Made by a program: the position numbers and the translations under genes. From Eukaryota sp. GEM-RC1 (taxonomy: Eukaryota), in assembly GCA_040285855.1 (NCBI GenBank), contig JAUFOQ010000003.1, positions 1,674,001-1,738,000 on the forward strand: a DNA stretch of 64,000 nucleotides, written 5' to 3'. Every line of letters begins with the position of its first letter. Position 1 is the stretch's first letter. Shown piece by piece: positions 4,381-61,849 of this stretch. Below the pieces are notes generated by a model. The model saw only the letters and a list, made by a program, of their open reading frames with translations, did no database searches and had not been told where the DNA came from.

Positions 4381-5108
4381 GTGCTCTTGTGGAGCTAATG
4401 GTGTTTTTCGTCATTTAATTAATTGTCGTTATTTTATTCATCTCCGTGCAGTAATTCATGATGGTGTACGTGATTCTTGTTATTCCATGTTTAAAGCACA
4501 TGGTTTTCACTCTAAAGTTGAACCAGTTTTGAATCATCTTTCAGAAAATGAATTTACTGATCAAAAACGAGGGGATCTACATACTCCGTGGCTTAAATCG
4601 AGTCAAGCATTAATGGATTTTACTACAGTAGATGTATGTAACAAATCTTGTGTTAGTAGGATATTAGATTCTTCTTTTAATCCATTAACAGCAGCTGAAA
4701 AGCTCAAACACACCAAGTATGACTCTCAAGTAGAAGAATTAAATAGAAACTCATATTCCAAATTTGTGTTTCAACCTTTTGCTGTTTCTCTTTTTGGATC
4801 TATTAGTCCTGCTGGTGATCAATTTTTCAAGGATTTCGAAGAATTGTGTAAAGAAAAGAAGCGTAAGTTTAGAATGGCTGAATGGAAAAACCGTATAGTG
4901 TTTTCCATATATCGGAATATGCCTTTCTATTTCTCTAGATTAATTGAGAAATTGTACAAGTTTGGTGTGAAGGTTCATGTAGATAAACGTAATCTTTTAC
5001 CGGGTGGTGATGAAGTCGTTTGGATTTAATCTTAGTATTATTTGTTTGTTTTTACAATTTCATAGTTTGTAGAAAGGTTACCTTATTGGGTGCCGAATAA
5101 ACATCTCT
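4381..5108 (+). mobile_element. 5'-truncated RLE-type (CRE/R2-like) non-LTR retrotransposon, family A
   Basis: CSC...HLINC zinc knuckle, IHDGVRD, RGDL...DFTTVD, AEKLKHTKY and FQPFAVSLFG RLE motifs. Near-identical to 11891-12380 and 32196-33127. Possible CTATATC TSD. Confidence 0.85.
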
Positions 5109-10460: not shown

Positions 10461-10653
10461 CGTCGCATTGCAATTAAACAAATGTGTTGATGAAAAAGGT
10501 TACGAATCGGTTACTTACGACAGTTACCTGTACCCTTTTATATACACTATACAGCCTACGATTGTTCTGCAGTGCCAATAATGCTATCTATAGATTCAAT
10601 AATCGTCATTGGTAATCCAATTCAATTGCATTTTCTATCACACACTTAAAATA

Positions 10654-11343
10654 ATGGACTTCAACTCTGTCGTTATTAGCGATGCTTTTCTATGCCTAAC
10701 CATTGCTATAATTGTGTTCAAACTGTTCAAGAAGTTTTACAAAATCACCAAAGACACAGAACTTCGATCGTACTTGTGGATCTCTGTTCTCTTCTTCATC
10801 TTCTCTGCCTTAGGAGCTTCTGCTGGATCAGTCTACCACGCTTTTGAAGAAGATGTCTCCGATAAAGTCAGGTTCCTACTATGGTGTCCTGTCAAGTACT
10901 TCCTCGCTCTAACCACGTACTTCACTGCCAGGATCGTTATAGATGCTCTCTTTCAAGGCAAAACTAGACACGTTCTTAGTCAACTTGCTCTCATTAAAAC
11001 CGCCTTCTACATTGGATTGGTTACCACTGTTTCTTCTTTCCTCACGACTGCTGTTGACTTTGGTTTTACTACCCTATTTGCCATCATCGTGTGTCTAACC
11101 TTCGCCATCAAATACTCCTTGGTATACGCTTGCTGGTTCACCTTTGGGTGGGTGATTGGTCTTCTTGGAGTTATACTACAGGTGCTCCATGTTACTGTTG
11201 ACCCAACTTATTTCAATAACAATGATTTGTTCCATTTGTGTGCAGCGATCTCATCTGTTTTTGTGTATGTAGGAATAAGTGCGTTCTTTCAAATTCGTGA
11301 TAAGATGGATTTCTTAATTATTAACGAGAATGACTCTGTTTAA
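10654..11343 (+). CDS. Multi-pass (~7 TM) membrane protein, DUF6962-like
   Basis: Seven hydrophobic segments. Motifs SD (TM1), GSVYHAF and YFNNNDLFHL. Confidence 0.55.
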   Translation: MDFNSVVISDAFLCLTIAIIVFKLFKKFYKITKDTELRSYLWISVLFFIFSALGASAGSVYHAFEEDVSDKVRFLLWCPVKYFLALTTYFTARIVIDALFQGKTRHVLSQLALIKTAFYIGLVTTVSSFLTTAVDFGFTTLFAIIVCLTFAIKYSLVYACWFTFGWVIGLLGVILQVLHVTVDPTYFNNNDLFHLCAAISSVFVYVGISAFFQIRDKMDFLIINENDSV

Positions 11344-11593: not shown

Positions 11594-12870
11594 CAGTGGT
11601 TGGAAAAAATATTTCTATTTAAATATTGAAATATTATTGCATAAAAATATTTATTTCTTTCCATCACATATTGAAATATCTATTTCTCAACATGACTGAT
11701 TGCAATATTTATTGTTCCTCATGATATTTATTGCAATATTTTTCTTGTTTCTATCAAATTGAAAAAAGTGCGAAACCATGTTCTCTACAATTACAGAAAA
11801 TACATTTTCTTGTATCTGGTGCTGCTTCTTACGGTCACTGAAGGTTTTTGTTTCTTCTCCTTGGTTATAGTAATGTTTCCATTATTAATCTTTATTCGGC
11901 ACCCAATAAGGTAACCTTCCTACCAAACTATGAAACTGTAAAAACAAACATATAATACAAAGATTAAATCCAAACGACTTCATCACCACCCGGTAAATGA
12001 TTACGTTTATCAACATTAACCTTCACACCAAACTTGTACAATTTCTCAATTAATCTAGATAAATAGAAGGGCATATTCCGATATATGGAAAACATTATAC
12101 GGTTTTTCCATTCAGCCATACTACACTTACGCTTCTTTTCTTTACACAATTCTTCGAAATCCTTGAAAAATTGATCACCAGCAGAACTAGTAGATCCAAA
12201 AGAGAAACAGCAAAAGGTTGAAACACAAATTTGGAATATGAGTTTCTGTTTAATTCTTCTACTTGAGAGTCATACTTGGAGTGTTTGAGCTTTTCAGCAG
12301 CTGTTGGCGGATTAAAAGAAGAATCTAATATCCTACTAACACAAGATTTGTTACAAACATCTACTGTAGTAAAATCCAATATTTTATAGTAATGTGAACA
12401 ATTTCTGAACTTTTTTCTGTTCCCTTTCGCATGACTTGAAACCACACCACGTGGCAGTGTTCTACTTCAAGCCCATGGATCCGCAGCCTGAATCAGTTCC
12501 AGCTGGCAAGGTTGCATGGCAATGTAAACACTGCACTTACAGCAACCCTTTCATCCTGTTCGTGAAGAAGCATTCCATCGACACCAACTTCCGCCCCCGT
12601 TGTTTCGGTTTTTAATACGATGTGATTCCATAAAATATATTATGATAAGTACAAAAGTATAGGTAACGTACATGTATTTACTAAATAAAGACTCTTTAGT
12701 CATACAATTCAAAGAAGAGTTGTGTCACAGAAATATTTATGGAATATTGCAATAATTGCAATATTTATTTATTAGTCAACTGTATTGCAATATTTATTGT
12801 TTGAACTGAACCTATTGAAATATTTATTGTTAGCCATGATATTTATTTAAATATTTTTTTCCAACCCCTG
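11594..12870. mobile_element. Non-autonomous hAT-type element carrying a nested LINE fragment
   Basis: TIR CAG(T/G)GGTTGGAAAAAA. Perfect TSD CCTTCGAT (11586-11593, 12871-12878). Subterminal ATTGCAATATT repeats. Confidence 0.9.
11891..12380 (-). mobile_element. RLE non-LTR retrotransposon 3' fragment, family A, nested in the hAT element
   Basis: Close reverse-complement match to 4615-5101. Confidence 0.88.
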
Positions 12871-22735: not shown

Positions 22736-22917
22736 TACAATACTAAATACTAAATTAAACGATCTTTATCAGAACAATTTGCTCACAAAACTACCCAAGA
22801 CTTAACTTCCCTAGTGTTACATTTCAAAAACAGTTTTAAATCCAGAGTCACGTCGGTCAACTAACCGAAATTTGAATCTAGGCACATTGCCATACTCTTC
22901 ATGTTCATGATCTATCA

Positions 22918-24439
22918 ATGTCCTCTCCTATTAATCTGATCTGTCATCTACTTCTATGTGCTCTGCTCTTTATTCAGATTATCAGTCCTGTTCAAACAAT
23001 GGTCAAGTACATATCTGATGTTACTTCCACTTTCAATGAATTCTTTCTACCAGAGGATATGCTAAACGACGAGGAACCTGACAAAGAGTTAGTGTTCTAT
23101 TTCTCATCAATTGATGAAACTGTATCAGTTATAACCACCACAGTTCACTCTTTTTATGAGTTGAACACCACTTCCTTGTCTATGTTTTATATATGTACTG
23201 AGGAACAACCACAGCTAGTATTCAATCCTTTTAGCTTTGGCTGGACAATCCCTGACGACTCCAAAACTCCGTCTGATGTTGTCCTACATCATCTTACTTC
23301 CTCCCACAACCTTTCTGTTGATGCACCTCTGGCAGACTTAACCCCTGATCTTCTTCATTTGTGTTTATTGTCCGCAAAATCAATGACAATATCATTCCGA
23401 CTGAATAACACTGAGATTACAAGCAGTGGTCCAGTTGTTAACCAGTGGCAAGTCACCCACCAGTTCTCTCTTCCCAAAGGCAGTGCTTCAGTTCGATATT
23501 CCTACGAGTATGAACGACTAGTCCTTGGATTCTTCTCTTTAGAGTCCCTCCGTATGCGACTATTCCTAGACATCTCTGTACTTCTCACCTCCCTTACTTC
23601 TCTCTTCCTCCTTGTGATTGGAAGCCAACTTCCTTTAAAAACTCTCTTTAGAGAAAGACGAACAGGGCGCCGTATTCAAGCTCTTGGCTCCACCCCTGAC
23701 TTCCTTCAACTTCTTCATCAACAACGACCTCTTCTAGGACAGATCAAAACCACTGCTCCACTCCCCCCTCCTCTCTTCTCTCTATGGTCCGTAGTCATGA
23801 TTGTGTGCTGTTGTTCAGCTGGACTAGGCTCCTTCTACGATCTAGTTGCTTGTGCTTTCAACCAAGTCTACACCGCTTCCTCTACCGTCCGTTTCCTTCA
23901 AGGTCTAGGTGCAATGACGTGCACCTGGGCACTGTGTAGTCATTACGAGACTCAAGCCAAGTTTTACCTTTTAATCACTACACTAAAACGCTCCTTTGTC
24001 CAAGCTTTCAATTGGTTCTTCTCCATCCTTCCTGTGTTCATGGGATACTCTTTCCTTGGATTTGCTCTCTTTGGGAACTACGCCCCTTGGCTTTTTTGGT
24101 ACTGTGGGTCAGTCCTCAGTTACTCTCTTTGCTGCTCTCAATGGTGATGCTGTAGCTGAGTATTATGAGGCTATCTATAAGGGGTTTCCTGTTATTAGTA
24201 GAATTTACTTTTATACTTTTATTTCGCTTTCCACGTATTGTGTTTTGAACGTGTTTAGAGTCATCATTGAACATGCTTACCATTCCACTGAATTAGCTGA
24301 AGAAAACTCTTTATACGAGGTCCCAATACCTCAACACGTGGACATGTCTAATGTTCGAAGGGTGTTGGACAAGGGGTTCGATAGAGTAAATAAGCAATGT
24401 ATGGAGAAAGTGAATAGAGGCAGACTGAAGGACGATTAG
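22918..24439 (+). CDS. Mucolipin (TRPML)/polycystin-like cation channel; one extra T at ~24092
   Basis: S1, large luminal loop, S4-S5 YLLITTLKRS..PVFMGYSFLGFALFG, pore SSVTLFAALNGD, S6 SRIYFYTFISLSTYCVLNVF. Confidence 0.8.
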
Positions 24440-32195: not shown

Positions 32196-33127
32196 ATGTT
32201 TATTCGGCACCCAATAAGGTCACCTTCCTACAAACTATGAAATTGTAAAAACAAACAAATAATACTAAGATTAAATCCAAACGACTTCATCACCACCCGG
32301 TAAAAGATTACGTTTATCAACATTAACCTTCACACCAAACTTGTACAACTTCTCAATTAATCTAGAGAAATAGAAAGGCATATTCCGATATATGGAAAAC
32401 ACTATACGGTTTTTCCATTCAGCCATTCTAAACTTACGCTTCTTTTCTTTACACAATTCTTCGAAATCCTTGAAAAATTGATCACCAGCAGGACTAATAG
32501 ATCCAAAAAGAGAAACAGCAAAAGGTTGAAACACAAATTTGGAATATGAGTTTCTATTTAATTCTTCTACTTGAGAGTCATACTTGGAGTGTTTGAGCTT
32601 TTCAGCTGCTGTTAATGGATTAAAAGAAGAATCTAATATCCTACTAACACAAGATTTGTTACATACATCTACTGTAGTAAAATCCATTAATGATTGACTC
32701 GATTTAAGCCACGGAGTATGTAGATCCCCTCTTTTTGATCAGTAAATTCATTTTCTGAAAGATGATTCAAAACTGGTTCAACTTTAGAGTGAAAACCATG
32801 TGCTTTAAACATGGAATAACAAAAATCACGTACACCATCATGAATTACTGCACGTAGATGAATAAAATAACGACAATTAATTAAATGACGAAAAACACCA
32901 TTAGCTCCACAAGAGCAAGTTGAATAGTTTAATAAATTTGCAGGCCAAATAGCCAAACGAAGACGCATATTGATCATCCAAGCTTCATCAGATAGATGTA
33001 ATCCATACACCTTAGGAATTTGAGAAATAAATCCAGAAGGTCCACTATTACAAAGATCGATTAAAAAAGCAGCGAACTCGGGACTATTAGTTTTAGCCAA
33101 GCTAATACGATTATTAAAGTCCAAGAG
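32196..33127 (-). mobile_element. RLE non-LTR retrotransposon, longest family A copy (5'-truncated)
   Basis: MRLRLAIWP, zinc knuckle and RLE motifs. Near-identical to 4381-5104. Confidence 0.88.
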
Positions 33128-33339
33128 TTCAAATATTATGCAATATTGGACACTTCCTGTATTGCTCCAAATATACAGAAATATACACATTGGTATACAA
33201 ATGAGGGGTCTTGTATAAACATTGTATATACAATCGTATACAGTGTATATGTATTAGTATATCTTAGGTATGATTGATTATACTACATTCGGCAAGTTCT
33301 TCTGTTTCCAGTAATGAAAAAACTAAGAAATAGCCATGG

Positions 33340-33442: not shown

Positions 33443-36042
33443 GAATTTTCTGATATTACTTCATATGTGGGCAGGAAGAGTCAGTGACATTGAAGTTAAA
33501 TGGACGGTGTAGTTGTTGGTGAAGAAATACTTGTATAATAAAGAGTACTGTATGTAAATTATTATCGTTTATTTAACACGCCTATGCTACAAGTGTCCAC
33601 ATTAAATCAGCTCCTCTAGTGTAAGAACCTGCTCCAGTATTACCATATACATCAGCAAAATTAGAAGGGAAAGCCTCAGCATGAACCTCAGCACCATTTA
33701 CATCAATTTGAATAGATGTAAACTGATCATCAGGAGTACAAGAAAAGGCATTTTCAGAAATGGTTTCAACAGAGCTACTGATAACAACAGATTCAAGAAG
33801 ATTGTTTAAAAATGCAGAAGCATCAATCAAAGTGACTCCTTGCGGAATAGTCACGGATTTCAGCAGGTTTGAAGAGAAAGTTGAAGCTGAAACAGTAACG
33901 AGTGAGGTTCCTTCAAAAGTTAAAGTGGTCAACGTATTTGAAGCAAATGCAAAATCTCCAATGGTAGTGACAGATGCAGGAATAGAGAGTGTGGGTATTT
34001 GATTACTTTCAAAAGCAGCAGTTCCGATATGTTCAAGACCAACTCCGAATGACAGAATAGTCAAACCGTTGTTACGGAAGGCAGAATCTCCAATAGCAAC
34101 AACAGAAGAAGGAAAAGTAAGCGCGGATATGTGATTACTTTCAAATGCAGAATTTCCAATAGAGGTGATGTGATTAACAAAATTAAGAGTACCGGTTGGA
34201 TTTCCCTTGAAAGCTGAGTCTCCAATAGTGATTACAGTGTAAGGAATATTGAGTGTGGTAAACATGTTATTTTCAAAGACAGAAGGTCCAATGTGATTAA
34301 AAGCAGTTCCGAATAAAATGGCGGTCAACTTATTGTTACGGAATGCAGCGTATCCCATAGTTTCGACAGAGTTGGGAATGTTGAGCGTGTGTAAGAGATT
34401 GTTTTCAAAAGCAGTACTTCCAACATGTCTAACAGAAGTTCCCATTGTAAGCGATGCCACCTTATTATTACGGAATGCAGAATCTCCAATAGTTTCAACA
34501 GTGTGAGGGATACTTTGAGTGTCAATTATATTGTCTTCAAAAGCAGAATTTCCAATGGATGTAGTTCCTTCATACATAGTCACACTCGATATAATATTCT
34601 TTTGAAAGACAAGTCTCCAATAGAAATAATGTATGCAGGAATATCGATTGCTCCCATTCGATTAATTTCAAAAGTAGAAGTTGCAATATGATCAAGACCA
34701 GTTCCGAATGTAATACCAGCAATCAGATTGTTACGGAAAGCAGCATCTCCCATACTTGTGACACTATGAGGAATGTTGACTGCTGCTATTTTGTTGTTTT
34801 CAAAAGCAGCACTTCCAATATCTTGAAGAGGAGTACCCAGTGTAATAGTAATTAACTGATTGTTACGGAAGGCGAAATCTCCAACGGTTGTTACACCGAC
34901 AGGTGACATGTGCTATTTTGTTATTTTCAAAAGCAGATTCTCCTAAGGAGATGGCAGTGTTAGGAAGAGTAAGTGTATCGAGAAGGTTGTTCTTGAAAGA
35001 TGAATCTCCAATGGTAATAACACTGTTGGGAATGACGAGCGCTGTCAAATTACTGGCTTGGAAAGCACCGTCTCCAATAGTAGTGACACCATCGAGAAGT
35101 GTGGGAAATGATGATAGAACGTTCTTCAAATTGTTACCTGTGGTTTCCAATAAAAAGGGACGATCGAGAGTAGTCAATTGATTGAAAGCGAAGGCATTCG
35201 TACCAATAGAAGTGACACCACTTCCGTATGAAACAGACTCCAAAAGATTATTAGCAAATGCCGACGGCGAGATAATCGTAACATCATTTGGAATGAATAC
35301 TGACTGTAGACTATTAGACTCGAAAGCAGATTGTCGGATCTCCAAGACAGTGTCAGGAATAACAACCGAAACTATACCTTTAGATTTGAAAGCATTTTCA
35401 TCAATGACAGTAATGTTGACATTATTGAGCATAGAAGGAATTTCTACATCAAGACCGAATGAAGCATCATAGCCAGTAATAGTTCCACTAGCAAAAGAAG
35501 ACGTAAAACCATGACCTTTCAAGGATATAGTATCTTCAAAAGAATCTTTAAGAGTAAATGTAAGTTGACGATCAAAGAAATTGGTATGCATAACCAATAT
35601 TTCAGATTCCACTGATGCTTCCATAGGAATAGTAACGACTCCTTTGTTATTACTTTTTGCTTCAAAATTTTGATACAAAGATTGTACAACTACATTTTGA
35701 ATAGGTGTTTGGTCTTTTCATTGACAAAAGTCAGTTTGAGAGAATGATCATTGTCCTTACCCATATACATCATGGAAAATACTATTGCAAGAAGTACAAC
35801 AGCAAGTAGGGCAAGCCCACCAATGACCATTCTAGTACGTCCCTTAGTGAAAAAGTTCATACCTTTTCTTAAAGAACTAACATTAGCTGCATAGTCAGGA
35901 AGAGGTTCCAATTGGACTGCACATTCAGGACCATCGTTATCAACAAATGGATATTTGGCAACTTCATAATTGCCGGCAGAAGTTGCGCTCAAAATAATAG
36001 GTTCATGAGTTCCCACACAGGCTACAGAAACAACATCTATTC

Positions 36043-36507
36043 TAGGGTTGTTAAGACACGAGTCACAGGTCAGGTCAATTCATTTGATGACCTTGACCTG
36101 ACCCGTGACCTGTTACTGTGGACCTTGACCTGACCTTTGACCCGATTTATGTGATCTTGACCTGACCTTTGACCTGAATCAGTTGACCTTGACCTGACTT
36201 TTGACCTGAAATCTACAATTTACTTTATTCTTTAACTATCGAAAATCCGTATAAACAAAGTCAAATCTAATGATTTCTTGAATATTAGTGTATACTAAGA
36301 GTAAATGGCGTAAGTTAATGTAATTTTGATCATTTAAAACAAGAAACTAACACATAAACTGCCAAATGTTTGACCTTGACCTGACCTTTGACCTGAATGG
36401 TAAGACCTTGACCTGACCTTTGACCTGATGTTCGTTAGCTTGACCTGACCTTTGACCTGACCTGACCTGTGATTTTCAGGTCTTGACCTGAACTTTTAAC
36501 AACCCTA
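36043..36507. mobile_element. hAT-type MITE with TGACCTGACCTT arrays
   Basis: TIR TAGGGTTGTTAA. Perfect TSD ATCTATTC (36035-36042, 36508-36515). Confidence 0.93.
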
Positions 36508-36813: not shown

Positions 36814-37900
36814 AAAAAAAACGGATTTATGTGCGGAGAAAAACACATAATAAGTTAAGTACAAATAGATAAACACTATTAAAACAAATTATCAAACGAA
36901 CTACCTAATTCCGAAAAGTAGTTGCCTCCAAACAACTTGGACAAAATGGAATCAACATATCTATACATAGACCTAAAAATCGAAAAAGCAAATTTACTCT
37001 TCCAGTACGATCTGTTAAACTTCTTGCCAAGTTCTGAACACAAATTTTCAAATAAACTTAAAAACTCCTTGGTAGAAGAACCGAAATTTCCGTACAATGA
37101 AACTGCAAAAGGCTGAAAGACGATATTATTGTGTCTTCGTGAATTCAATGCAGCAACTTGATGTCCATACTTAGACACTTTGGCGTTCTCAGCGTCTTTC
37201 AGCGGATCATTTGAGGGATTCAAAATGTTGGCAATAGCTGAAGCTTTGCAAGGATCAACGGTCGTAAAATCAACAACAATTTCTTGGCATGACAACCAAG
37301 GGCCAATAAAATCACCACGTTTCTGAGTAGAATCAGGGTGATCTGAAAGATGAGAAAGTAATGGTTCGACTTTGCCATGGAAACCATTTGCCTTAAACAT
37401 TTCCAAACATGTATCTCGAAGACTGTTGTGCAAAATTGAACGACAATGTATGAACTTTGAACAATTGACCAAATGATGAAAGCTAGCCTTATGTTTGTTT
37501 TTACAGATACACGTGCTGTTCTGTATCAAACCAAATGGCCAAAAACCTAAACGAAGTCTCATGTTAACAAGCCATTCATGATCTTTTAGATTAAAAATAA
37601 ATCTCCCTGGCAATTGAGTAATGAAAGTAGATGCTGAATCACTACTCATGTCTTGTAAAAATGCACAGAAAGCGGGACTTTTAACTTTAGCCAAGCTAAT
37701 GCAGTTAGTATAGTCCAAGCTCTCATGGAAAGATACAAATTTCTTCTGAAATTTTCTAACACCAAGAGGAAGGGAAAAAAGCGTACGTTGAGGTGTTTCC
37801 GTCACAGATGCAGGGAACAAGGATTCCCAAACATCAGGGTTCATACCATCTACAGCCCAATGTTGTAAACTAGTATGAAATGTCAAGAGATTGAACAAAC
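36814..37900 (-). mobile_element. 5'-truncated RLE non-LTR retrotransposon, family B, with open reading frame
   Basis: MRLRLG, CIC..HHLVNC, LHNSLRD, RGDF..DFTTVD, AENAKVSKY and FQPFAVSLYG. Confidence 0.88.
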
Positions 37901-38301
37901 TAATGCTGAAGGTACTTGCTGGAGTGGAGCTTACGGGAGCTACAGCAAGGATTAGAGGAGCGGAGGGACTGCCGAGTTCCATTTTGGCAGAACGTTCAAC
38001 ATCTTCGAGCTTGGATGCTATTTCTGCCGGAAGATTGTTTCCATCATCAAAAGTTACATTCTGACATTAGACCGAGTGTGTATACAACATACAGTAGACA
38101 CGGAAAACCCAAAAGGTTAGTGTCAGAGGACAATAAGGATTGCATCAAAGTTGAAAGGAAACAAGAGAGAGAAATGATGAGACTGATCCCAAGTTGCCGT
38201 AGTTTTGATGAAGATTCTATTAATAGATCAAAAGAATAGGGAACGCCTCTAGTTTTGCTCTTAATCTTAGTTCTGGAGTCGCGACTGAGGTCCAAGTTTA
38301 G

Positions 38302-42065: not shown

Positions 42066-43940
42066 CTATTTTCCATCCAAAGCTAATTGAACATCATCAA
42101 CTGCAGAATTTGAAATTTGACGAAGAGAAAACTTCTCATTTAAAATCTTCAGTGCGTCAGGAGAAAGAAAAGCTGGGAGCCTTGGTCCTAATCTAATGTT
42201 CTGAACTCCCAAATGTAGTAAAGTAAGCAAAATAGCAACAGCTTTCTGCTCAAACCAAGAGACAAAATACGAAATAGGAAGGTCATTGAGCCCTACTCCA
42301 AGTTGATTGGCAAGATGAGCAACAAGAGTAATGGCAGAGAACGTATCATTACACTGACCGGCAATCAGCAATCTAGGAAAATCAGTTCCAGGAAGAGTGC
42401 CAAAGTCCTGGTGACAAACGTACCTGTAGATGCCACACCTAAGGTTAGGTTAGATTAGTATGTCATACGCGCTGCCAATGACAATACAGTCAGGAAGATT
42501 CTTATTAACGTATTCAGCAACCTCTGAGAAGTAATTTCGACCTGGAAAAGAGCCGTCACAGCCACCAACAAAGAAGACTCGTCTTAGTTTACCAGCTTTA
42601 ACCAACTCGATAATGGCATCAGATAAAGCGGTTGTAGTTCTCCAATTAGCTCCAATAATTTGATCAGGAAGGAAACCCTCGAACAGTGGAGGTCCATCTG
42701 AGGCAAACCCAGGCATGTCCTGAGCTTTCTTAATAACTGGAGTCCAATCTTTCTCAGGATAGTTATCAGGCAAGTAATCAATATGGGGGACACCTTCCAC
42801 TCCAACCAAGTTACAGGTAAACATTCGATCCTTGTAAGTCTCTCTGGGAGGCATTATACAATTAGTGTTCAAAACAATGGAACCTGGGAACAAGCTGAAC
42901 TCTTTCCGTTGGTTTTGCCAAGCACTACCAAAGTTTCCAACAAGGTGAGAGAACTTTCTTAATTCGGGATAGGCGTTTGAAATCAACATCTCTCCGTGAG
43001 TGTAAACGTTTACACCAGATCCTTCTGTAGCTTTAAGAATAGAGTGAAGATCATGAAGGTCGTGGCCAGACATCAATAAGCACTTTCCATTACGAACACC
43101 AAAGTTTACACGGGTTAGGGTAGGAGTTCCGTAAGCAGACGTATTAGCCGGATCGAGACGTTCCATTGTATCAAGGTTCATTCGGCCAACCTCCATAGCA
43201 AGAGCAAGCAGATCTGCATTGGGTTTTAGCATTTCGGTTAAGACTGTTACGATAGCTTTTCCATCGTTGGAGATATCACCTCCCAGAATATCAACATGGG
43301 AAGCATAAGCAGAAAGACCTTTGAGACCATAAATGGAGATTTCCTGAAGACCCGTTACAGTTGCTCCTTGAGTTTTGAGACGTTGAAAAATTCCAAACTG
43401 ACGACCTTGTTGTTCTAATTCTCCAGTTGTTTTAGCTGGGACCCATGACTTCAAACTGAGCTTGTTTGCAATGCCAAACTCTGCAGGATATTCGAAGGGT
43501 TCAAGATTTAACTGTTTCAACATTTGCTTGGCTTCTTCTGAACACACGTAAATGTCATTGATATGTTTAGCAACACGAGAGTGATCGAAATTGACATTAG
43601 TGAGGGTTAGAAAGAAAGCATTAACAAGCGCAAGGGTCCAAGATTTTGGTATTGCTCCTTGAAGATCCAGGATTGGTCGGGCGTGGATAGCCCTAAGATT
43701 AGGTTCAGTAACTAGTAAACATACAAGTGAAACGCCCCAGCATGAATGTTGTCGAACAAAGCACTTTGAACATCGTCTTTAGAACAAACACCTCTCTTGG
43801 TAAAGCAACCCTTTTCAGCGTTTTTCCCAGACCCTAGTGTTAGTTCACAATCATTATAACGTACCAGATTGTTCGCATTGGTAGCAGAACATGGGGGGTT
43901 CAACATTGATGGTTTCCAAGTCTTCCTGAGATAGAACCAT
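42066..43940 (-). CDS. hcp: Hybrid-cluster protein (hydroxylamine/NO reductase, prismane); introns 43834-43864, 43693-43724, 42439-42468
   Basis: Spliced protein has MFCYQCEQ..GC..GVCSK, TLTNVNFD, YGLKG, SGHDL, YTHGEM, AWQNQ, TNC, GGCDG, CG, GQCND and SWFEQKA. Confidence 0.95.
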
Positions 43941-45204
43941 GTATGGTTATGAGTTTTAGTGGAAATGCTGATCAGTGTTCACTACTTACAGAGATGTCTA
44001 CAGTGTCTTGTCAGTATGACGTTTTTCTACTCCCTTCTGATTTGGTGTTTTAACTAGTATCAGTCCCTGTAAACAGAATATGTACTTTGCACTGCTTGCA
44101 ACACAGTGTTCGGTAGTTGTGTGAAGTGTAAGTCATGCCAATGTTCATTACAGAGCAATGTTTGTAGATGGTTGGTACGTACAATACAGATTGGTAGAAA
44201 GTTTCAGGACGTTCCGAAAGAATCTAAAGGAGATGACTTTGTATACTGCAATTAATTAATCAACTCATACTAATTTGGATTACAACGTGATTTTTTTTTA
44301 GTAGACACTTCTGTTTCCAACGCATCTCACTTGGGAGCATAGCTGAAAAATACAAATTAGTGTATTTTTGTATTTTCACTTAATTTTTGTATTTTTGTTT
44401 TTTTGGACTGAAATGGGTGGGCTATCGTTCTTTGTCACTCTGAAGGTGATAGCCAAACATACGGATGTTCTTTGTAACATTAAAACAAACAATGGTGCGT
44501 ACTTTGTCCTGAATTTGGTTTTCAATGGTTTCCTACATGCATTAGAATGACCACTATTTATAGAGATTGTACTTTTTTCAATTTTTTCAGTTTTGTTGTC
44601 AAGTTATACGGTCTTTTTCGGTACTTAGACTGAGGCAGACATCGATACATGTTTTTTTTGGGGAGTACTTGACACCTGTGATTGATTTGTTGTGACTATC
44701 GATGAGATTATCAAATATTTACAATCATTCATCTACTTCTACACCCCTGATCTACTTGTTCTTCTATCAGGACGAATAAATGAGACCCAGTGTATCTTTG
44801 GATATTGCACTGGTAACAATGTATAGACTCAGTGGAAAATACATTTCACTGGGACGGATTTATGTGGTACTTCATTTTCAACCTTTTGGAGGCTGATTTC
44901 GTCAGAAATAGATTAGTGCCAGTTAGACGAAGTGCTGTGGGCAATGCACAATGTACAACATGGAAATGTAGTGTTCCAAGATGAGGAAGAATCACTTCTT
45001 AATGTGGTAACAGCATCATCAATAGTCCCACATTTCAAAATAGCTAATTGGGATAAATTCTACTACAGTACATGTGTTGAAGTTTTACTGTGTTCTGATA
45101 ATTGATTGTTGACTACTTGTATTTTTGCATTTTCGTGTGTATTTTTCAATTATTTTATTATATTATTTTTGTTTTCTTAGAACACCTGTTGCTTGTACTG
45201 TAAT

Positions 45205-45365: not shown

Positions 45366-48300
45366 ATGGCCACACTAACTGTTGCCTTCCTAATCATCGT
45401 CCTTAGTCTTTCATGTACAGCTACTGACTTCAGTGTCTCCTTCTTCACTGAACATTCAGTTGATGATGTCTACTCACATACTGAGTTTATCCTCTCAATC
45501 TACCCCAAATCTTCAGATTCATTTTTCCAAGTCTGTTGGGGTGATGACTCTGCTTCGAAATGTTCCTCTGAAACAACATATACCCATAACTACTTAAATT
45601 CTGGGACTTTCACCATCACTATCTACTCCTCCAACGACCAGTCTTCTTGTCGTCTCAATCTAGACCAAAGCCTTGGTTCTTTCAAAACTCGTACCATTAC
45701 CGTTCTTGATTCCTTCTCCTGCTACGACTTCACTCTCTTACAGGACGGTTCTACTACACCTCCCTTCCTTAACCTCTCATCAGAATCCTCTCTCTTTGAA
45801 CTCAAGGTCTTTTCTGAGTCTACTGATCTCTCCTCCGTCTACGCTCACCTAGGAGAATCTCTTCAAGTCACATCCTCTTTGAACATTGTCACTTCCATTT
45901 CCCCTTACAATGCATCCACCAACAGCTGGTGGCTCTCCATTGATCCTATTCCTTACCCCACCATGAACCACTTCACAAATGACCAGAGACTTAATGCCAA
46001 TATTCCTAGAGTAATTGATTTAATTCGATATTTCTCAATAACTGTGTCTTCTACTGGTATTAAGTATCATAAATGTGTCGTTAGGGATCTTTTGATTGAG
46101 GGTCTGATTGATGATGATTATGTTGATTACGATTTTGATTTTCTTGGTGATGTTGTTGATTCTGAACAGTCTTTTGGAACAAAATTGGAAACAATCTGTT
46201 CTGATTGCAATCCACTTGTTTGCTTGAGCTACTTTGTTGATGATGATAGCAGCTCTAAATTCCACGTATTTCCAACTTTTTCTGGCTACAGAGGTCAAAA
46301 ATCACCAGTTATTGATATTTCGAGGTCAAAATCAGTATTAACCGGTCAAAATTCTGATGTGATTGATGACGTCACTTCACTGTGCAATACGTTTACCCAA
46401 CAACAATGTAAAAATATGAAAATTTTCAAATATTCTATCATGAACGGTCTCAACAGATTCTTCATTAATACTAACTACGGACCAATCGTTGCGTCCAGAT
46501 CTAACGTCACCAGGTCAAAAATCAATTTTAATCCTATCAAAGACCTATCAGATGAAAGAATTCAAGAGGGACTTGTGTTTTCTTTCTCTGAATACCATGT
46601 TGTTAATGGTTTTGGTTGTTCACCGAGTGGTTTTGTTGATTTCCAACGTTATACTTTCTATACTTCATATAACAATCCTGAATCAGGTGACGTTCTTTCC
46701 TATACCACAAGTGATCTCTTCTCTGATTGGTCTGTGATGTCGATCCCCTTTGGTATCAGAGTCGGACCTTTTGATACGAGTGCTAGAATCGTGATTGATG
46801 TGTTAAGAATTCCTACCATTGGTTATACTTTGATTGTTCTTGGAGATCAATATCATCAGAAAGTCGACATTGTTTATAATTTTGATGACTTTAGAGAAGG
46901 TGAGCCCGATTACGAGTTTCGACCGTCATCAAAGTCTCAATTTGATCCCTCTTCTGGGTGGTTCACGTCAGTCTTTCAGTTTCCTCAATCAGAAGTGATT
47001 GATTGGATAAAAGTCGATAAGAAGGGATCAGTGATTTATGCTGTCGGTCAATCACTTTGGGTTGCTGTCATTAATTCTGATAGTCTGTTGTTTTCAAAGG
47101 TTGTTGCCTTTCAAGGCAATGAGTCGGTCGTTGATTTTGAGCTGTGTGGTTCTTACTTCCTGATTCGAACCAATCAATTACGATTGTATTATGGAAACAT
47201 TGGAGGTGAACATGCTTCGTCCATCGATGTTCCTCCTTTTATATCAATTCTGGTGGTAATTTAGAATTTTTCAATTTTATCTTTGATGAACAGTGTGAAA
47301 TCAGTGTCGTTTCTTTTCTTTTTCAAATTCTACCTCATTTACTGCAAATTCTGTTAAATATTTAAAATCTCATTTATTGTCCTCTTTCTTTCTTCCGCCC
47401 TCTAATTCTTTTACGCCTACTACAATGTCAAGTCAATCATGGCTGACTCTCAATCATCAATCAATCAGTAATGGTTGGTTTCTATCACGTTTACAATCAG
47501 GAATGGTGTTTTCACTTGGTCAAGCAATAAATGGTCGGGTTATTGATATCAATTTACAATCAGTTTTGATTGAATGGCCCATGCAAATTCCCGAGTTTCC
47601 TTTATTCCCATGTGCAATCAAAATTGATTTTAATGGTAACGTCTACACTAATTCCAGAGGATCGCTTGCTTCAGATCAAGGATCTGAAATCTTCTTTGAA
47701 GTTGATGCTACCTGTGATCCTTTTACTTTGAGTGATTTAGATAAATCAGTCATTTTTCAAGATTCAACTGGGAAGCTTCCAAAACTGTTCTTTTCTGGTT
47801 CTTTTTGATTACGGAAGTTGTCAATTCGAGAAAATTAAAAGTTTTGGTTGTTTCTGACCTGGTGACGTCATCAGATGAGATTCCTGCGTATTCCAGCTTA
47901 ATCATGGATTTAAGACCTGTTGACGTTTACAGACCAGGAGTTGGTCAATCACTTTCATGTTCGGAACTTTCATCATTTTTGATTGATTGTTCTATGAATG
48001 GTGGAGACTTTCTTTTTCTGATAATTTTGTGGGAATGTTTTTCTTTATTAATGAAAAGATTGTTGGAAGTATTGAATCAGTGACGAATTCACTTTCCTTT
48101 ACAGTTCGATTGATTAAGCAACAATCAATTACGACTGTAGATTTCCAAGATTGGTCGCTTTCTCAGTTGTTTTCGTCTGCACAAAGTCATTTTGAACCTT
48201 CCTACGTCAACAGATTCATTCTGTCACCATGTGTTTTCTCAGATTTGAAGGTTTGTCCGATTCCCATGGTTTTTGATCGGAAAGAATCCATCTCTATCAG

Positions 48301-49306
48301 TTATCAACTGTCATCACGACAGATTGATTACGTTGCCGAAACCAATTTAGGAAGGTTGCCCTCGATGATTTACATCACTTTGTCCTCTCAAAACAGAGTT
48401 TTTGTAGATTATTCGAAAGTAATCGATGAACAATCTTATCCCTCAAAATTTTCCAAAGAAATTCAAATTTCTGATAATGACATTGGTGGTCCTTTTTCAC
48501 TTATACTTTTCCCTCAAGTACCATCACTTTCCTGTAAATTCTCTCCAATTGTTCCAGCTTCACTGATTGTCGGCTGCTCCCCATTTAGGAAAGTAGTCAT
48601 CAATCACGACATTGATTTGATCTCTTCTATCGACGATGAGTTCATCATGGAGCCTCTCCCAATCAATTACAGACCTCCCAGTCGTTTTGGAAAAGGAATT
48701 CCAATCAGTGACAACATCTACAATGCAGATCCTTCTCAAGACATGTATTTCAACATTGATGGTCGTTCAAAGTCTACTGGAAGCTACAAACAGTGTGAGG
48801 AGTCGCCAGAATTGGAAAGATGTGGATGTTCTGAGAAATCAAGAGTATCACAGTATGAGATTGAAACTGATTGCATTACGCACGTTTACAGGGTTTTCTA
48901 TTCTGATGGGTTCTCACTTTCTTTTTCTGTTTTGGAAGGTGATGATGAATTGAGATCAATCGACGACAAGTTTTATCTTCATGAACTTAACGATCGCCGG
49001 GATTACTGTTTCGCCAGTGACACGTCATCAATTGATTGTACAAATTTCGACGAAGTTTCCGATTTCCTAATGTCCACCAACGACACAATCATCTTTGCTG
49101 GTGATGAGCTCTACCATTTCAGAGCTACGTTTGTTTCTGAATCTCTTTGTAATTACCAAACTGACTTTGTTTTCTGGGTGTTCGAACCTCCTGCACAACA
49201 GACAATAGTGTGGGCAACTATTAGTATAACCTCAATTACTTTAGGAATTGTACTGTTTGTATTGTACTTTGTGTTTTTCAAAGTGTCTGGGCGTCGTTTT
49301 GAATAA
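45366..49306 (+). CDS. CATSPERB: CatSper auxiliary subunit beta-like protein with an N-terminal PKD-like domain; frameshifts near 47240-47380, 47800 and 47990
   Basis: Signal peptide. WGDD..HNY..SGTFTITI (PKD-like). VGCSP, LPINYRPPS..GIPISDNIYNADPS, SKSTGSYKQC..CGC, GDELYHFR and a C-terminal TM. Confidence 0.8.
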
Positions 49307-49437: not shown

Positions 49438-50239
49438 CTATTGAATACAACAACAACCCGCTTCTGCAGAATTTTCTTGACCATAATTGTACGGTGGACG
49501 CTGTGCCACGTGGCGTTCTGAATTAAAGTGTTTGTCTGTGACGAAAGAATTATCTCCAGAAGCAAAATCTAATTTTTCCCATTTAAAAGATGAATCTATA
49601 AATCCCTCATCTGACAATAAATTATATACATTGTTTTTGTAATTAAAAATAACCGAAAAATGATTATTCCGAAATAGAATCGCTAAAGACTTGTCATTTA
49701 GCTGCGAGGACAATTGTAAAAGTCCATATGACGTCAATTGAGACGAGGTCTCAGTTAAAAACTCCTCCAAGAACAACGTCACTGTCGGAAATGGACTTTT
49801 CAACAGCTACATTGTAAGTTAAAGATCTGTAGTTGTTCAGAACCTCATCTTCTGGATCGATTAACCATCCATGTACCAGAGGAATCTTCAAAACGTCGAA
49901 GACAGTAAGTTCTTGACAGAACTCAAAGGAAAAGATGGAGTGAAAGCCTGGATTTACATCGAGTCCAACGCTAAGGGAAGGAAGTAGGTTAAGAGCTTCT
50001 TCAAGTTGATGGGCTTCATTTTCATCATTTGGTTTGACACGATCAATGCGGGAGGCTATGAGTTCAATAAGATATGTGTGAGTTACTGTCTTGAAGTTAT
50101 CTGGAACAATGTTGATTTTGGACGTTAGAGATAGATAATTGCACAGAGCCAGCAGAGGACATGGCCCGTTTTCATTCTGAAACACAATTGTGCGAGATTT
50201 GTCACAAAACGAGATAGTTTTTGTCCGGTAAGTTGACAT
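49438..50239 (-). CDS. MINDY-1/2-family deubiquitinase; one frameshift at ~49770
   Basis: QNENGPCPLLALCN, GLDVNP, LVHGWLIDP, SQLTSYGL, FRNNHFS, and a C-terminal CaaX-like CCIQ. Confidence 0.9.
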
Positions 50240-50319
50240 TTGTTTCAACAAATTGGATATCCTATTTTCAACATTGGTATGTTGTCAGATATCTCCTTTG
50301 AAGATTCTTCCAAGATCGT

Positions 50320-51108: not shown

Positions 51109-51879
51109 TGTTAATTGAAAAGATGAATTGTACAACTCAACAGTTAAATACTAAAATTTTGGATATATACAGTCTCGATTAAAATGACATACCCAAAATG
51201 GCTTTGGACACTTTTTGTGTCGTACATTATTTGTAAATCGTCTTAGTATAACGCTTTTAAGTTCAAAGTTTACACTCGAAATCTTAGTCTCCAAAGACTA
51301 CCCTTCTTTGCAACAGGATCAATCTGAGTGTGGTGTAGCTCGTCTCATCAAGGTTTTGAATCTGACTGACTAGAGTGCACAACTTCACATGGTTTGGTAT
51401 TTCAGCAAATAGTTTGCAATTTTTTATAATGAACATTATTAAGCGTTTCTTAATTTTTGTCACTTAACTGATCGAAGTTAAGTGACAAAAAGTCTCACAT
51501 TTTAGTCATTTAGGATACACCGTTGACGTACTGTAATGGAACGTTTAGAAAATTCAGTAGCAAATTGTATGCTCTGCAAGGTGTTAAGGAATACATGACC
51601 TAATTGTACCAAGCAATGGTTTATTTGATCAGAAAGATCTGCTGTCGTGTGTTGCTCTCATGTATTTCTGTCATTTTCATCAATTAAAGGGATTTTAGGG
51701 CTGATAAAAAACACAAAAAATACAAAAAAACACAATGCCCTGGATGTAGTGCGTACCGACGTGAGCGCACTATAGCCAGGGTCGACTCGAACTTTTCCAG
51801 AAAAAAATACAATGCAAATTACAGAAAAAAGACTGTATTTTGTATTTTACAACTATGACTCAGGCTACAGTAATCAACT

Positions 51880-52750
51880 ATGCACTTTTGTCTTTGAGTT
51901 CTGTAGACGGTACCCAAGTCAAGAAAATCTTCTTGTTTCGACAAGTAGTTTTTTCTTGGTAAATTTGAGATCAGAATTGTCGCTAATTTCACCTGACCTC
52001 TGGCAAACTTGTTTTCCAGCAGATATTGGTATTTGTGAAAAACCAGAACGATGTGTCACCTCGTTAAAATTTGGTCTTAAGAAGCTCCAAAAACACCTTT
52101 TAAAACATTTTGAATGTTTGGATTTTAAAATTCGACTTGGCTCGGCCAAAGAAAAAAATCAAGCTTTCGCAAATTATTTAATCGATTTGAAGGGCAGTTC
52201 TTCAGTTGCTTTGATTAACCAAATTTCACAGATTTATGGTTTGTTGTTGAATGATCATCAATGGACTACAACATTCAGACTTCGATGTTTCTTATGGCCC
52301 TCTAATTTACCCAATGATCTTCAATGTAAATGTGGTAAATTAGTTACTTTTTCTCACCTTTTGATTTGTAATCGGTTCATTACTTATAGAACTTGTATTC
52401 ATGATGCTGTCAGAGATCAAATTCATGCCATGTGTAAGTCCTACAAAATCGAATCTTTCGTTGAGCCACTGTTGAGATCACTTGAAATCAATAATTCAAA
52501 AAATAGTGATTCTGATAAGACTTTTGGTAAAAGAAGAGCTAATGTCATAGTTCCATCAGTCAACGATGAACTAACCGTTGTTGATGTGATTACTGTGGAT
52601 GTTTGCAAAAAAAGTGCATTCAAGGATGCTAAAAATGAAGTTTCTCCACTGAATTCTTCAGAACAATACAAGAGAAACAAATATGATGAACCACTGACTG
52701 CTCTCAAACACAGTAGACATGTTGAGTACAAATTATGTCCCTTTGCAGTG
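51880..52750 (+). mobile_element. RLE non-LTR retrotransposon fragment, family C, with open reading frame
   Basis: FRLRC, CKC..HLLIC, IHDAVRD, RRANVIVP..DVITVD and SEQYKRNKY. Confidence 0.85.
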
Positions 52751-52899
52751 ACTGAATTATATTTAAATCAGATACTTTCAACTAGAAATATATAACCGTC
52801 AAAGAATTTTGTTTGTCCACGTATATTCGAGACAATGTTGGAACAACTTCTAGTAGAGGGCTAAATCCAATCGTAATTGTTGTTCAGATCTCAAACAAA

Positions 52900-53140
52900 A
52901 ATTTGACCGACTCTACACTGAAACGCGGTGATTGTTATAGCCCTCGTCTGTCATACCAGGAAATTGTAGTTCATTTTTCGATTGTTGACCCTTGCAAATC
53001 TTCAGATATTACTAGTATTTTGAATACTTCAATTGGTCCAAAGAAAGAAAGTGCGTACATCAACTTGCTGCTTTCAATTCACGATAACACAATAGTAATG
53101 TCTTTCAGCCTCATGCGGTTCCCTCATATGAATATATGGG
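52900..53140 (+). mobile_element. Degenerate family B RLE fragment
   Basis: DSTLKRGDC..QEIVVHFSIVDPCK. Confidence 0.6.
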
Positions 53141-53459
53141 TTCTTCTAGATTGTTTGGTTTAATAGTCCTTATTAATATCTAGTGTCTTGTTGCGTGTTT
53201 ATCTCAGTACATAAATCTGCTTTAGTAACTCCAAAAGAGAATTAAACTCAGATAACGACATTCATTTCGGAGGCAATGAATCATTTATATGGTTCATCAT
53301 GACACAAATCACATTAGTAAACAATATTTAGCAGCGTTTACACACATAACTGATTTAAGAGCCGAAAAACCAAGGTTTAATTGCTTTCATAAAAAAACTC
53401 CAACCAGATACAACAAACAAAAAAGTTAAATAAATTAAATAATCTAAAACATTTAAAAA

Positions 53460-54496
53460 CCTTATCCCAATATAGGAGCCAACACTTCATTTTTAACCAA
53501 CATCTTAATCGAGTCCAATCCTAACTCAGATCTCGTTTTTTGATTAATAGAGCTCAACCCCTCAGTCATCCACTCAACTTCCTTAAACTCAGCCCCAATC
53601 AGCACCAGACCATGAGGAGATGATGGGGAGAAGAAAAGAGGGTTTACTTGGATACTTAGTTACATCCAACAAATCTCTGGCAAAGAAGGAGGTTCAGCTC
53701 CAGATCCTACTAACTCAAGCATTGACATAATGTATCTGATTTGATTGTGTAGAAAACCATTACCAACAATAACAACTGCATGTACTTGAAGAGGAGAAAT
53801 TAGAAGACTGTCGATTTTTTTTAAATGTGATTGATCTAATCTCACGTGTGTAATGATCTAGTGATGGGTCTTTCTTACAGTAATTGCTGAAATCGTGATT
53901 ACCAATTAGAGAATGTGCTGCTTCTTGAACTTTCTCCATATTTAAATCAGTGGTATCTAAAAAGTACTTGTAGGTTCTTTCTGTACATTCATAACGAGGA
54001 GAGAAGTCGTTAGGAACGTACGCATAGGCCAGAACTCGTATATCAGGGGGGCAATCGTGCGTTTAACATGGGAATATACGCAAACTCAGTAGAACTTCGT
54101 CGCTTTTTACCAACAGTGGCTGAATCACCTTCAAAGTTCAATCTAGATCGAATGTTGACAGCAAATACTTGAGCACTAGCGGATACAGAACTGTCTGTCC
54201 GCCCGCAACAAGTGAATTTGACAGAGTTAGACAAAGCTGATGAAATTAGGCCACAGTTTTGTAGAGTTTCTAAAAAGATTTGTTGGATAGTTCGGCTAAT
54301 GGTTGTTTGGATCTGAACTCCGTGGTAACTATATCCTAAGTAGGATATTTTGAAAGCAATTCGTTTAATGGGGAAGGCTTCGTACTTTGGAAGTAGAAAC
54401 GGGAGGGTATGAAGTAGTTAGAGGTCCATAGATGTCTTGATATGTTTCAACTAGTTCAACAAGTCTTTCTTTGGAATAATTGGTGAATTTAGACAT
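53460..54496 (-). CDS. TruA-family tRNA pseudouridine synthase (Pus3/Deg1-like); ~5 frameshifts, 3' end approximate
   Basis: RIAFKISYLGYSYHG, CGRTDSSVSA, LNARLPPDIRV, RTYKYF, GNHDFSNYCK and GFLHNQIR. Confidence 0.85.
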
Positions 54497-55136: not shown

Positions 55137-55766
55137 TCAACTCACATCATTAAGACAATGCCTCACCTCCCATCTTAGCTTATCTCTTCTCTTCTCAGTA
55201 GGTACTTGATAAGAAGAAGGCCTCGTAGGTTGAGACTGGATTCTGTAGGTGGGGGCAGAGGTTCGTAGTACCGGAGGGTGAGCGTTCTTAGGACGGCCAG
55301 ACTTCCGTTTAAGGAAAGGATCTTGAGCCCAGCTTTGATTGAGTTCGTGAAAGCGAGAAACTGGATCGTTTTTGTGAGGTTTTTGGGGATTTTGAGGGTA
55401 GATGACCGACTTTGTAGCAGACTTTGGACGAGAAGAAACACGAGAGGATGGTAGGGGGGAAGATCTCGAGGTACGAGGACGGGAGGAGGGTTGACGGGAA
55501 GATTTGGGAGGAGAGACTCTTTGAGGAGGAGATGCTAGTCCTTTCAGTCTGCTGAAAGGAGACCTAGCTGAAGAAGGAGAGGAAACAGAAGATGACACAG
55601 AGTGAACATGAACTTCTGGAACATATGGAGGAGATATGTATGATGTGTCAGGTGAAGATAGGGATGAAGTTGAGCGAGAAGAAAAAGAGGGGGACAATAC
55701 TTCTTGATCCTGCCGCAGCTCTAGACATTCTAAGAGGCTCTGAAGGAGGTCATCAGAACGAGGCAT
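55137..55766 (-). CDS. HYLS1: Centriolar/basal-body protein HYLS1-like
   Basis: KNDPVSRFHELNQSW and YQVPTEKRRDKLRWEVR match the HYLS1 C-terminal box. Confidence 0.85.
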   Translation of the reverse strand: MPRSDDLLQSLLECLELRQDQEVLSPSFSSRSTSSLSSPDTSYISPPYVPEVHVHSVSSSVSSPSSARSPFSRLKGLASPPQRVSPPKSSRQPSSRPRTSRSSPLPSSRVSSRPKSATKSVIYPQNPQKPHKNDPVSRFHELNQSWAQDPFLKRKSGRPKNAHPPVLRTSAPTYRIQSQPTRPSSYQVPTEKRRDKLRWEVRHCLNDVS

Positions 55767-55812
55767 TCACCAAAGATATCTCCACAAAATTTGGTCTTTG
55801 AATAACTCTCTT

Positions 55813-56340
55813 ATGTACACTGAAGAGTTTCTACGCTCATCTCAATTGTTTCGGACTTCATCCACTGAGACCCTTCAAAAGGTTCTTGCCAACTGCACTC
55901 GCTTTCATGAATTTCAAGCTGATCAGATCGTTCTAAAACAAGGCGATAAAGCTGGTTTCCTCTACCTCATCCTCTCTGGCGAGGTTTCCGTCTATCGCTT
56001 AATGAGTTTTCCTCCTTCTTCTCACCAACGTCTTATCAGAATCGGGATCCTCCAAACGGGTGCTCATTTTGGTGAAAGTGCAATAAAAGACAGATTTATC
56101 AGAGTCTCCGCTTCTGTCATTGCTTCCAGCCACACAACTCTCTTAGCTATAACCCCTTCTGAGTTCCTAGAGTTCTTCGATGCCCCCGCCAAAGCAGTTG
56201 TGCTGAATCCAAATAGGTTCATTTCAGATGATGAGATAAGATCAGTCATGAAGAAGAAGTTGGATTGGACTACGCATAGAAGTAGGTTGATTAAGAAAGA
56301 GTTTTCGAAACCCAATCACTTCTATAGAGCTCTGCTTTAG
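55813..56340 (+). CDS. Stand-alone cyclic-nucleotide-binding domain protein
   Basis: IVLKQGDKAGFLYLILSGEVSV...GAHFGESAI...VSASVIA. Confidence 0.8.
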   Translation: MYTEEFLRSSQLFRTSSTETLQKVLANCTRFHEFQADQIVLKQGDKAGFLYLILSGEVSVYRLMSFPPSSHQRLIRIGILQTGAHFGESAIKDRFIRVSASVIASSHTTLLAITPSEFLEFFDAPAKAVVLNPNRFISDDEIRSVMKKKLDWTTHRSRLIKKEFSKPNHFYRALL

Positions 56341-61110: not shown

Positions 61111-61820
61111 TCACTTCTTGAATCTCCTCTTCATTATTTTCAGTATTCATTCTTTCCAATATTTGTTTGCGACGCTCTCTTCTGAGTTTCTTTTGCTCAT
61201 CTTGAAATAAAACTGTGTCCCGTTCCACTCTCTCATTGGAGTACAGAATAGTCATCGTTAATTTTCTTAATTATCCAATCAAATGCGTCTGTAAGAAGTG
61301 GGTGAGGCTTACCATCAGTCGGCAGTGATATACATCCATGAATAGAGAAATCAGTTTCAAACACTTGGAGATCAAGTGATCTTGTGATTTTAGCGATGGG
61401 CAGAGCTTCATCTTTATCTGCTTTATTACATAGTATCAGTAGTGGTTTGTTCTTCAAATATTGATTGTCAATAGTATCTAGTAAGCATTTTTGAGCTTCC
61501 TCGAGTCGCTTTGAATCAGCTGAGTCAATAAAGAAGACGACTCCATGCACTTGAGCAAAGTAGTATTGCCAAATATCACGGATTCTAGCACCCCCACCAA
61601 GATCGTAGAGAGATACAGAGTTAGAACCGTAGTTGATAGTAGATGTGTCAAAGCCGACTGTAGGAACTACGATAGCGGTATGATCATCACGTAGAGTGTT
61701 GAAGGCTGTTGTCTTTCCAGCATTATCTATACCAATAAAACAGACTGTTATTTTGCTTCCAGAAAGTGTTTCTGAGTCAGATTTGTGTGTGCAACATGAA
61801 AAACAAGATGAAAAACACAT
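61111..61820 (-). CDS. ARL13B: Ciliary small GTPase ARL13-like; one extra base at ~61238
   Basis: N-terminal Cys cluster, GIDNAGKT, the diagnostic YDLGGG and NKAD. The +1 frame continues with the coiled coil NERVERDT..RRERRKQ. Confidence 0.88.
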
Positions 61821-61849
61821 GGCAACGAAAACTCTATGTCACCATTCTC

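Follow-up and report, generated by a model that had tools for sequence, protein, structure and literature searches.

A PKD-bearing orthologue of the CatSper subunit CATSPER-beta in Eukaryota sp. GEM-RC1

Eukaryota sp. GEM-RC1 has a gene at 45366-49306 on the plus strand that is a CATSPER-beta orthologue. Positions throughout are those of the window, the 64,000-nt stretch of contig JAUFOQ010000003.1 that was analysed. We consider it reasonably probable that the whole explanation given here holds: a beta of skoliomonad type, likely intact, that is likely a canopy subunit of a flagellar CatSper channel. It is known already that CatSper is older than animals and is found in metamonads, and the gene adds to a known family; the widespread non-animal PKD domain of beta, and two betas of Tritrichomonas foetus, were not found in print.

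Identity, relatives and host

The last ORF of the gene matches Pfam CATSPERB_C (PF15149) at E 7.6e-37 (127.5 bits; cut-off, 27) and mouse beta in the PDB (7eeb_E/9ubw_E) at E 2e-21. Together with the Foldseek ranking below, this bears out the CATSPERB identity claimed in a preliminary description of the DNA, for which a profile search had been proposed. Among nine window ORFs scanned this one alone had a CatSper-type Pfam match, and gamma or delta/epsilon Pfam domains were matched in none of the nine. The stem holds LPINYRPPS (48656-48682), followed by GIPISDNIYNADPS, SKSTGSYKQC and CGC, and then GDELYHFR (49100-49123); these motifs, quoted in the preliminary description as lying before a C-terminal transmembrane segment (TM), are found where it placed them (48656-49123), and the stop codon is at 49304-49306.

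The four Pfam CATSPERB domains other than the C-terminal one, whose profiles are animal-based, were not detected in the GEM-RC1 pieces, and phmmer of the N-half against the PDB returned nothing under E 0.2. Structures were predicted for aa 1-624 (the N-half; pLDDT 80.7) and for the C-terminal 429 aa (model m092088e2d3ef; pLDDT 91.2), the broken middle 260 aa lying outside both models. Foldseek gave mouse beta as the best match of each, at 5e-16 for the N-half, then epsilon and gamma, and at 3e-25 for the C-part, then delta, epsilon and gamma; the match to mouse is not wholly independent, since animal betas are in both folding alignments (five in or near each). VIA superposed model residues 114-624 on 7eeb_E 26-489 with Z 23.1 (422 residues; rmsd, 4.6; next best Z, 15.8). 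By this structural alignment the ectodomain of NTD and beta-propeller, missed by the animal-based Pfam profiles, is present. Since the alignment starts only at aa 114, which corresponds to mouse residue 26, GEM-RC1 residues 20-113 are without a mouse counterpart.

The domain order is leader, PKD, NTD, propeller, Ig-like domain, stem and TM (Table 1). Because Pfam CATSPERB_head matches only other non-animal orthologues and no GEM-RC1 piece, the head-domain name is putative here. A Kyte-Doolittle scan of the read-through translation marks aa 1-27 (leader) and 1280-1311 (TM) as hydrophobic, and more weakly aa 475-493. Type I topology, with a leader and one C-terminal TM, fits both hydropathy and the model (helix 395-424); the signal peptide is predicted from hydropathy and a modelled helix, and its cleavage site is presumed.

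Table 1. Features of the CATSPER-beta gene and its four frame breaks in the window
Feature	Position	Strand	Basis and remarks
CATSPER-beta gene	45366..49306	+	~1314 aa across four frameshifts; no intron required; colinear with both skoliomonad orthologues
Predicted signal peptide, ~aa 1-19	45366..45422	+	hydrophobic run aa 1-27; model helix 2-16
Extra N-terminal PKD domain, ~aa 20-113	45423..45704	+	weak Pfam PKD; own profile E 6e-6; beta-sandwich, pLDDT ~75-96
CATSPERB NTD beta-sandwich, ~aa 114-250	45705..46115	+	structural alignment to 7eeb_E from residue 26; animal NTD alignment; approximate limits
Beta-propeller, spanning breaks 1 and 2	46158..47340	+	model residues 267-624 match propellers; presumed end
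Frameshift 1 (-1)	T4 run 47237..47240	+	automatic placement 47253; probable placement at run, from TZLM1-RC similarity
Frameshift 2 (-1)	T5 run 47319..47323	+	automatic placement 47336; probable placement at run
Probable head-domain region	47341..48235	+	homology to TZLM1-RC and TZLM3-RCL proteins; putative name
Frameshift 3 (-1)	T5 run 47802..47806	+	automatic placement 47803; flanked by conserved SGS and by I/LITE
Frameshift 4 (-1)	T5 run 48013..48017	+	automatic placement 48006; alignment
Ig-like domain preceding stem	48236..48571	+	modelled strand pattern; Foldseek best is mouse beta; approximate limits
CATSPERB C-terminal stem with LPINYRPPS, conserved cysteines, GDELYHFR	48644..49273	+	PF15149 E 7.6e-37; conserved columns
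Single C-terminal TM helix and very short tail	49199..49288	+	model helix 395-424; hydropathy

Mouse CATSPER-beta (7EEB chain E, 9UBW chain E), which is sperm-specific, has the same NTD, propeller, Ig-like and stem folds, the stem motif and the C-terminal TM, but lacks the ~95-aa N-terminal PKD of GEM-RC1, to which it is 14-20% identical in structural alignments. Its TM is said, in work by Lin et al. of 2021, to pack on the CATSPER4 voltage sensor.

The closest relatives are intact skoliomonad metamonad proteins, P9112_013973 of TZLM1-RC (KAL0226649.1, 1312 aa) and RCL1_005663 of TZLM3-RCL (1338 aa), both annotated 'hypothetical protein'. They are full-length orthologues with the same domain order including PKD, and the top ESM Atlas matches of P9112_013973 are beta clusters (0.91 and 0.90). 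The beta of Carpediemonas membranifera (KAG9397166.1, 1354 aa) also has PKD and CATSPERB_C and falls in the sister group, but is only 21% identical; it is presumably the beta listed as J8273_1075 in PMC8516963. Whereas partner subunits are published for Carpediemonas, GEM-RC1 is known here from its beta gene alone.

In a quick full-length tree (26 rows, SH-aLRT support) GEM-RC1 and the two TZLM betas group at 100 and are joined with Carpediemonas and an environmental sequence, L001, at 94. Animals (99), Chromosphaera plus animals (88) and fungi (91) each group, so that the gene phylogeny is in broad agreement with species relationships; a quick C-terminal tree of 57 rows agrees with weaker support. 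The gene would have been inherited by descent from an ancestor of skoliomonads and fornicates. L001 (PPCM01002062.1, 689-4756), sister to Carpediemonas, is an intact, intron-free gene for a 1352-aa beta on a metagenome contig; it is the one analysed of 11 loci to which 208 pattern matches of a metagenome scan were reduced. Further non-animal homologues occur in Gefionella, Diphylleia, Chromosphaera and eukprot jgi/Chlat1, the last of which we take to be the streptophyte alga Chlorokybus.

The host is a skoliomonad-related metamonad and an anaerobic flagellate, since its closest proteins are skoliomonad and a hybrid cluster protein and HYLS1 encoded in the window fit, as we assume, an anaerobic flagellate; the unicellular flagellate of the preliminary description is thereby supported. 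The hybrid cluster protein (Prismane; 42066-43978, minus strand) is next upstream of the beta gene, has short GT-AG introns and is typical of anaerobes. HYLS1 (55140-55766, minus strand) and an Arf-like GTPase (61236-61838, minus strand), presumably ARL13-like, are cilium-linked families, and a cNMP-binding protein is encoded at 55744-56337 (plus strand). Skoliomonas litria TZLM1-RC and Skoliomonas sp. TZLM3-RCL are described as anaerobic haloalkaliphilic biflagellates (PMC11603281), and skoliomonads are placed in the BaSk clade, sister to Fornicata (PMC11316075).

Four frame breaks in the assembled gene

The one continuous ORF envisaged in the preliminary description is not found in the assembly: the gene lies in five in-frame segments separated by four frameshifts, each -1, while both TZLM orthologues are intact ORFs. 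These orthologues nevertheless align colinearly along the whole gene, switching between several frames on the way from its start codon (45366) to its stop. The read-through (X at breaks) is 1314 aa long, is free of stops in all five segments, and retains similarity to both orthologues in every segment. Its identity to them is 34.4 and 35.0%, compared with 36.2% between those two, and its branch length of 0.87 shows no lengthening against 0.92 and 0.86 in the quick tree. Because the read-through has neither in-frame stops nor extra divergence, the breaks are likely assembly or sequencing errors, and we hold with considerable confidence that the gene would be intact in the living cell.

Breaks 3 and 4 fit T runs closely; automatic alignment puts breaks 1 and 2 13-16 nt away from theirs. 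Counts of T runs in the gene are 36 for T4 and 14 for T5, with none of six or more, although 5.9 such long runs are expected from 2000 codon shuffles, only one of which had none (P 0.0005). Run length is not limited in general, since T6 runs are present outside the gene: 15 other long ORFs in the window have 29 T5 and seven T6 runs, and 77 A/T runs of six were counted in the window. Frame breaks are seen in four more genes of the window, in three cases at homopolymer runs. The four are a BspA-like LRR gene (33585-36079, minus strand), a TruA-type pseudouridine synthase (53763-54417, minus strand), a MINDY deubiquitinase (49438-50284, minus strand), whose break is not clearly at such a run, and an ion-channel gene (22882-24439, plus strand) with a weak Ion_trans match and a frameshift at a T6 run near 24100, which we take to be mucolipin/TRPML-like.

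The gene could instead be a recent pseudogene, its frameshifts real, in a lineage that is losing CatSper. The four breaks do stand in the assembly, the protein library carries only a 423-aa C-terminal piece, and PMC8516963 reports no CatSper in the metamonads of its sample other than Carpediemonas. Decay of this kind appears improbable to us given 1310 codons without nonsense, breaks that are all -1 and at or near T runs, an unlengthened branch, long T runs scarcer than expected and similar breaks in housekeeping genes. Still less credible is a reading in which tiny introns or programmed slips account for the breaks. Genuine GT-AG introns of 29-30 nt are present in the window genes for RPS18 and the hybrid cluster protein, and frame-restoring GT-AG stretches lie near breaks 1, 3 and 4; but break 2 has no candidate, and the others either delete residues conserved in TZLM1-RC and TZLM3-RCL or sit past the break, so tiny introns were rejected as the cause. 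Four programmed slips in one gene are unlikely, and the orthologues need none.

The PKD domain and its distribution

The PKD domain carries a WGDD motif (WGDG-like). In the first ORF Pfam PKD (PF00801/PF18911) reaches 17.1 bits, below the cut-off of 23.5 (E 0.0055), although it passes the cut-off in the TZLM1-RC orthologue P9112_013973. A profile of our own, built from eight non-skoliomonad seeds without GEM-RC1 or skoliomonad sequences, matches GEM-RC1 at E 6e-6 (threshold, E under 1e-3) and so upholds the PKD-like motif noticed earlier. A family profile matches bacterial PKD structures at 2e-8.

Eight of 21 betas scanned have Pfam PKD or PKD_4 above cut-off (TZLM1-RC, Carpediemonas, Diphylleia, Chromosphaera, Cyanophora, Polyrhizophydium, Gefionella and one ENA protein), as does TRFO_06663 of T. 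foetus. The seed profile matches 14 of 23 named non-animal betas, six of the 14 being seeds or a seed isoform (independent count, 8/17), and none of 41 named animal betas; iterated, it matches 18 of the 23 and again none of the 41. The sets were picked from named matches, leaving out fragments under ~950 aa and duplicate isoforms, and the animal set is mostly vertebrates with one cnidarian, three echinoderms and two annelids, and holds no sponge and no full-length ctenophore. Given 8/17 independent non-animal against 0/41 animal betas, the N-terminal PKD is probably ancestral and was probably lost on the animal line. Such a loss would be the simplest reading, as Chromosphaera, sister to the animal clade, and chytrids have PKD.

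PKD was missed in all rounds in Hondaea, Thecamonas, Chytriomyces, Neocallimastix and Phlyctochytrium. The Thecamonas, Chytriomyces and Neocallimastix betas start without an obvious leader, and these models may be truncated. Further PKD losses do occur, since beta P0022 has a leader but no PKD. A degenerate PKD suspected in the animal-clade beta P0158 received an hhalign probability of 0.1%, in a weak test that gave P0066, PKD-like by eye, only 31%. UniRef already labels some of these betas 'PKD domain-containing protein'; no mention of a PKD domain in beta was found among the literature matches listed, which exclude subscription journals, bioRxiv supplements and Cai 2014. The Cyanophora beta model has a C-terminal ureidoglycolate lyase and that of Gonapodya an N-terminal cyclin domain; both are probably fused gene models.

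Two T. foetus proteins, TRFO_03167 and TRFO_06663, pass CATSPERB_C at 6e-19 and 3e-17 and have an N-terminal PKD. They are annotated only as hypothetical or PKD-domain proteins, and their relatives P0150 and P0152 group with them. On long branches, they are set apart from the other metamonads in the free tree; a single metamonad clade that includes them is not rejected by the AU test (p-AU 0.36), which does not show that there is such a clade. The two beta genes were previously unrecognised: among the literature matches listed, in which subscription journals and supplements on bioRxiv are again not covered, none deals with CatSper in Skoliomonas or T. foetus, and the word 'CatSper' is absent from the text of PMC11316075 and from its searchable supplements (one file was unreadable).

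Possible role, significance and other window genes

In the mouse complex the CATSPER1-4 pore lies under a canopy made up of the ectodomains of beta, gamma, delta and epsilon, which link into zigzag rows (PMC9205950); mouse pore assembly needs beta and depends on the contact that its NTD makes with delta (PMC13484710). By homology, GEM-RC1 beta likely belongs to the canopy of a flagellar CatSper Ca2+ channel, as one of its four subunits with a single membrane pass. Its ectodomain would pair with delta/epsilon- and gamma-type partners to form the canopy needed for a four-subunit pore, and the channel would let Ca2+ into the flagellum and so change its beat. PKD may be an ancestral outer canopy module beside the NTD, most likely a contact or adhesion surface.

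It is plausible that GEM-RC1 retains a complete CatSper complex, and there is a good chance that the partners and pore are present, although our profile searches returned only beta-type proteins and no gamma or delta/epsilon, which is weak evidence on partners. The protein may alternatively be an intact beta without a CatSper pore, a lone surface or adhesion protein, which we regard as unlikely. Its PKD, propeller and Ig-like domains are of generic kinds used in extracellular proteins, and the divergence from animal beta is large (~14% identity in the N-half). No pore gene was seen with Pfam on 62 of the 106 window ORFs, where the one weak Ion_trans match is in the presumed TRPML-like gene. 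Against a lone protein, the stem is the best-conserved part (~42% identity to the skoliomonad orthologues versus ~30% in the N-half). The fornicate relative Carpediemonas also keeps the whole subunit set, with CatSper1-4, beta, delta/epsilon and gamma, among sampled metamonads that otherwise lack CatSper (PMC8516963); T. foetus and skoliomonads lie outside the sampling described there. Beta, moreover, co-occurs with the other subunits in print (PMC5362262, PMC13358043): beta, gamma and epsilon have a common pattern of gain and loss (PMC5362262), and nine fungal CATSPERB proteins are given in PMC13358043.

The preliminary description saw a bearing on the ancestry of the channel. That bearing stands but is smaller than implied there, because a pre-animal origin, with CatSper1-4, beta, gamma and epsilon dating back to early eukaryotes (Cai 2014, cited in PMC5362262), and the full metamonad set of Carpediemonas (PMC8516963) are already in print. 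What is widened is the range of CatSper-beta, which was published for Carpediemonas and is now seen also in the fornicates' sister group and in a parabasalid. This range speaks more for an old gene that metamonads inherited and repeatedly lost than for a peculiarity of a single genus. From the PKD module it would seem that the mouse canopy, as solved, has been cut back from its original form. Our broader proposal, that an ancestral beta with PKD lost it on the animal stem and that CatSper was present in the last common ancestor of parabasalids, skoliomonads and fornicates, is tentative, and we would put it slightly short of even. If it is true, anaerobic soda-lake skoliomonads, and perhaps Tritrichomonas, would still use a complete channel of ancestral type to steer their flagella, and the original stimulus of CatSper could be studied in cells that are not sperm and can be cultured. 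Skoliomonads would be an informative test of gating, since the named ones live at ~pH 10 (PMC11603281) and intracellular alkalinisation opens mammalian CatSper (PMC13674862, a text in which none of six protist terms occurs).

Elsewhere in the window is a set of related repeated ORFs (4334-5029, 12098-12466, 32274-33253, 36882-38066 and 51776-53163) with Cys/His and DFTTVD-like motifs. They had no Pfam match at 1e-3, and we presume a resemblance to the endonuclease ends of non-LTR elements. A DUF6962 membrane protein, possibly of bacterial origin, is encoded at 10603-11340 on the plus strand (E 2e-25).
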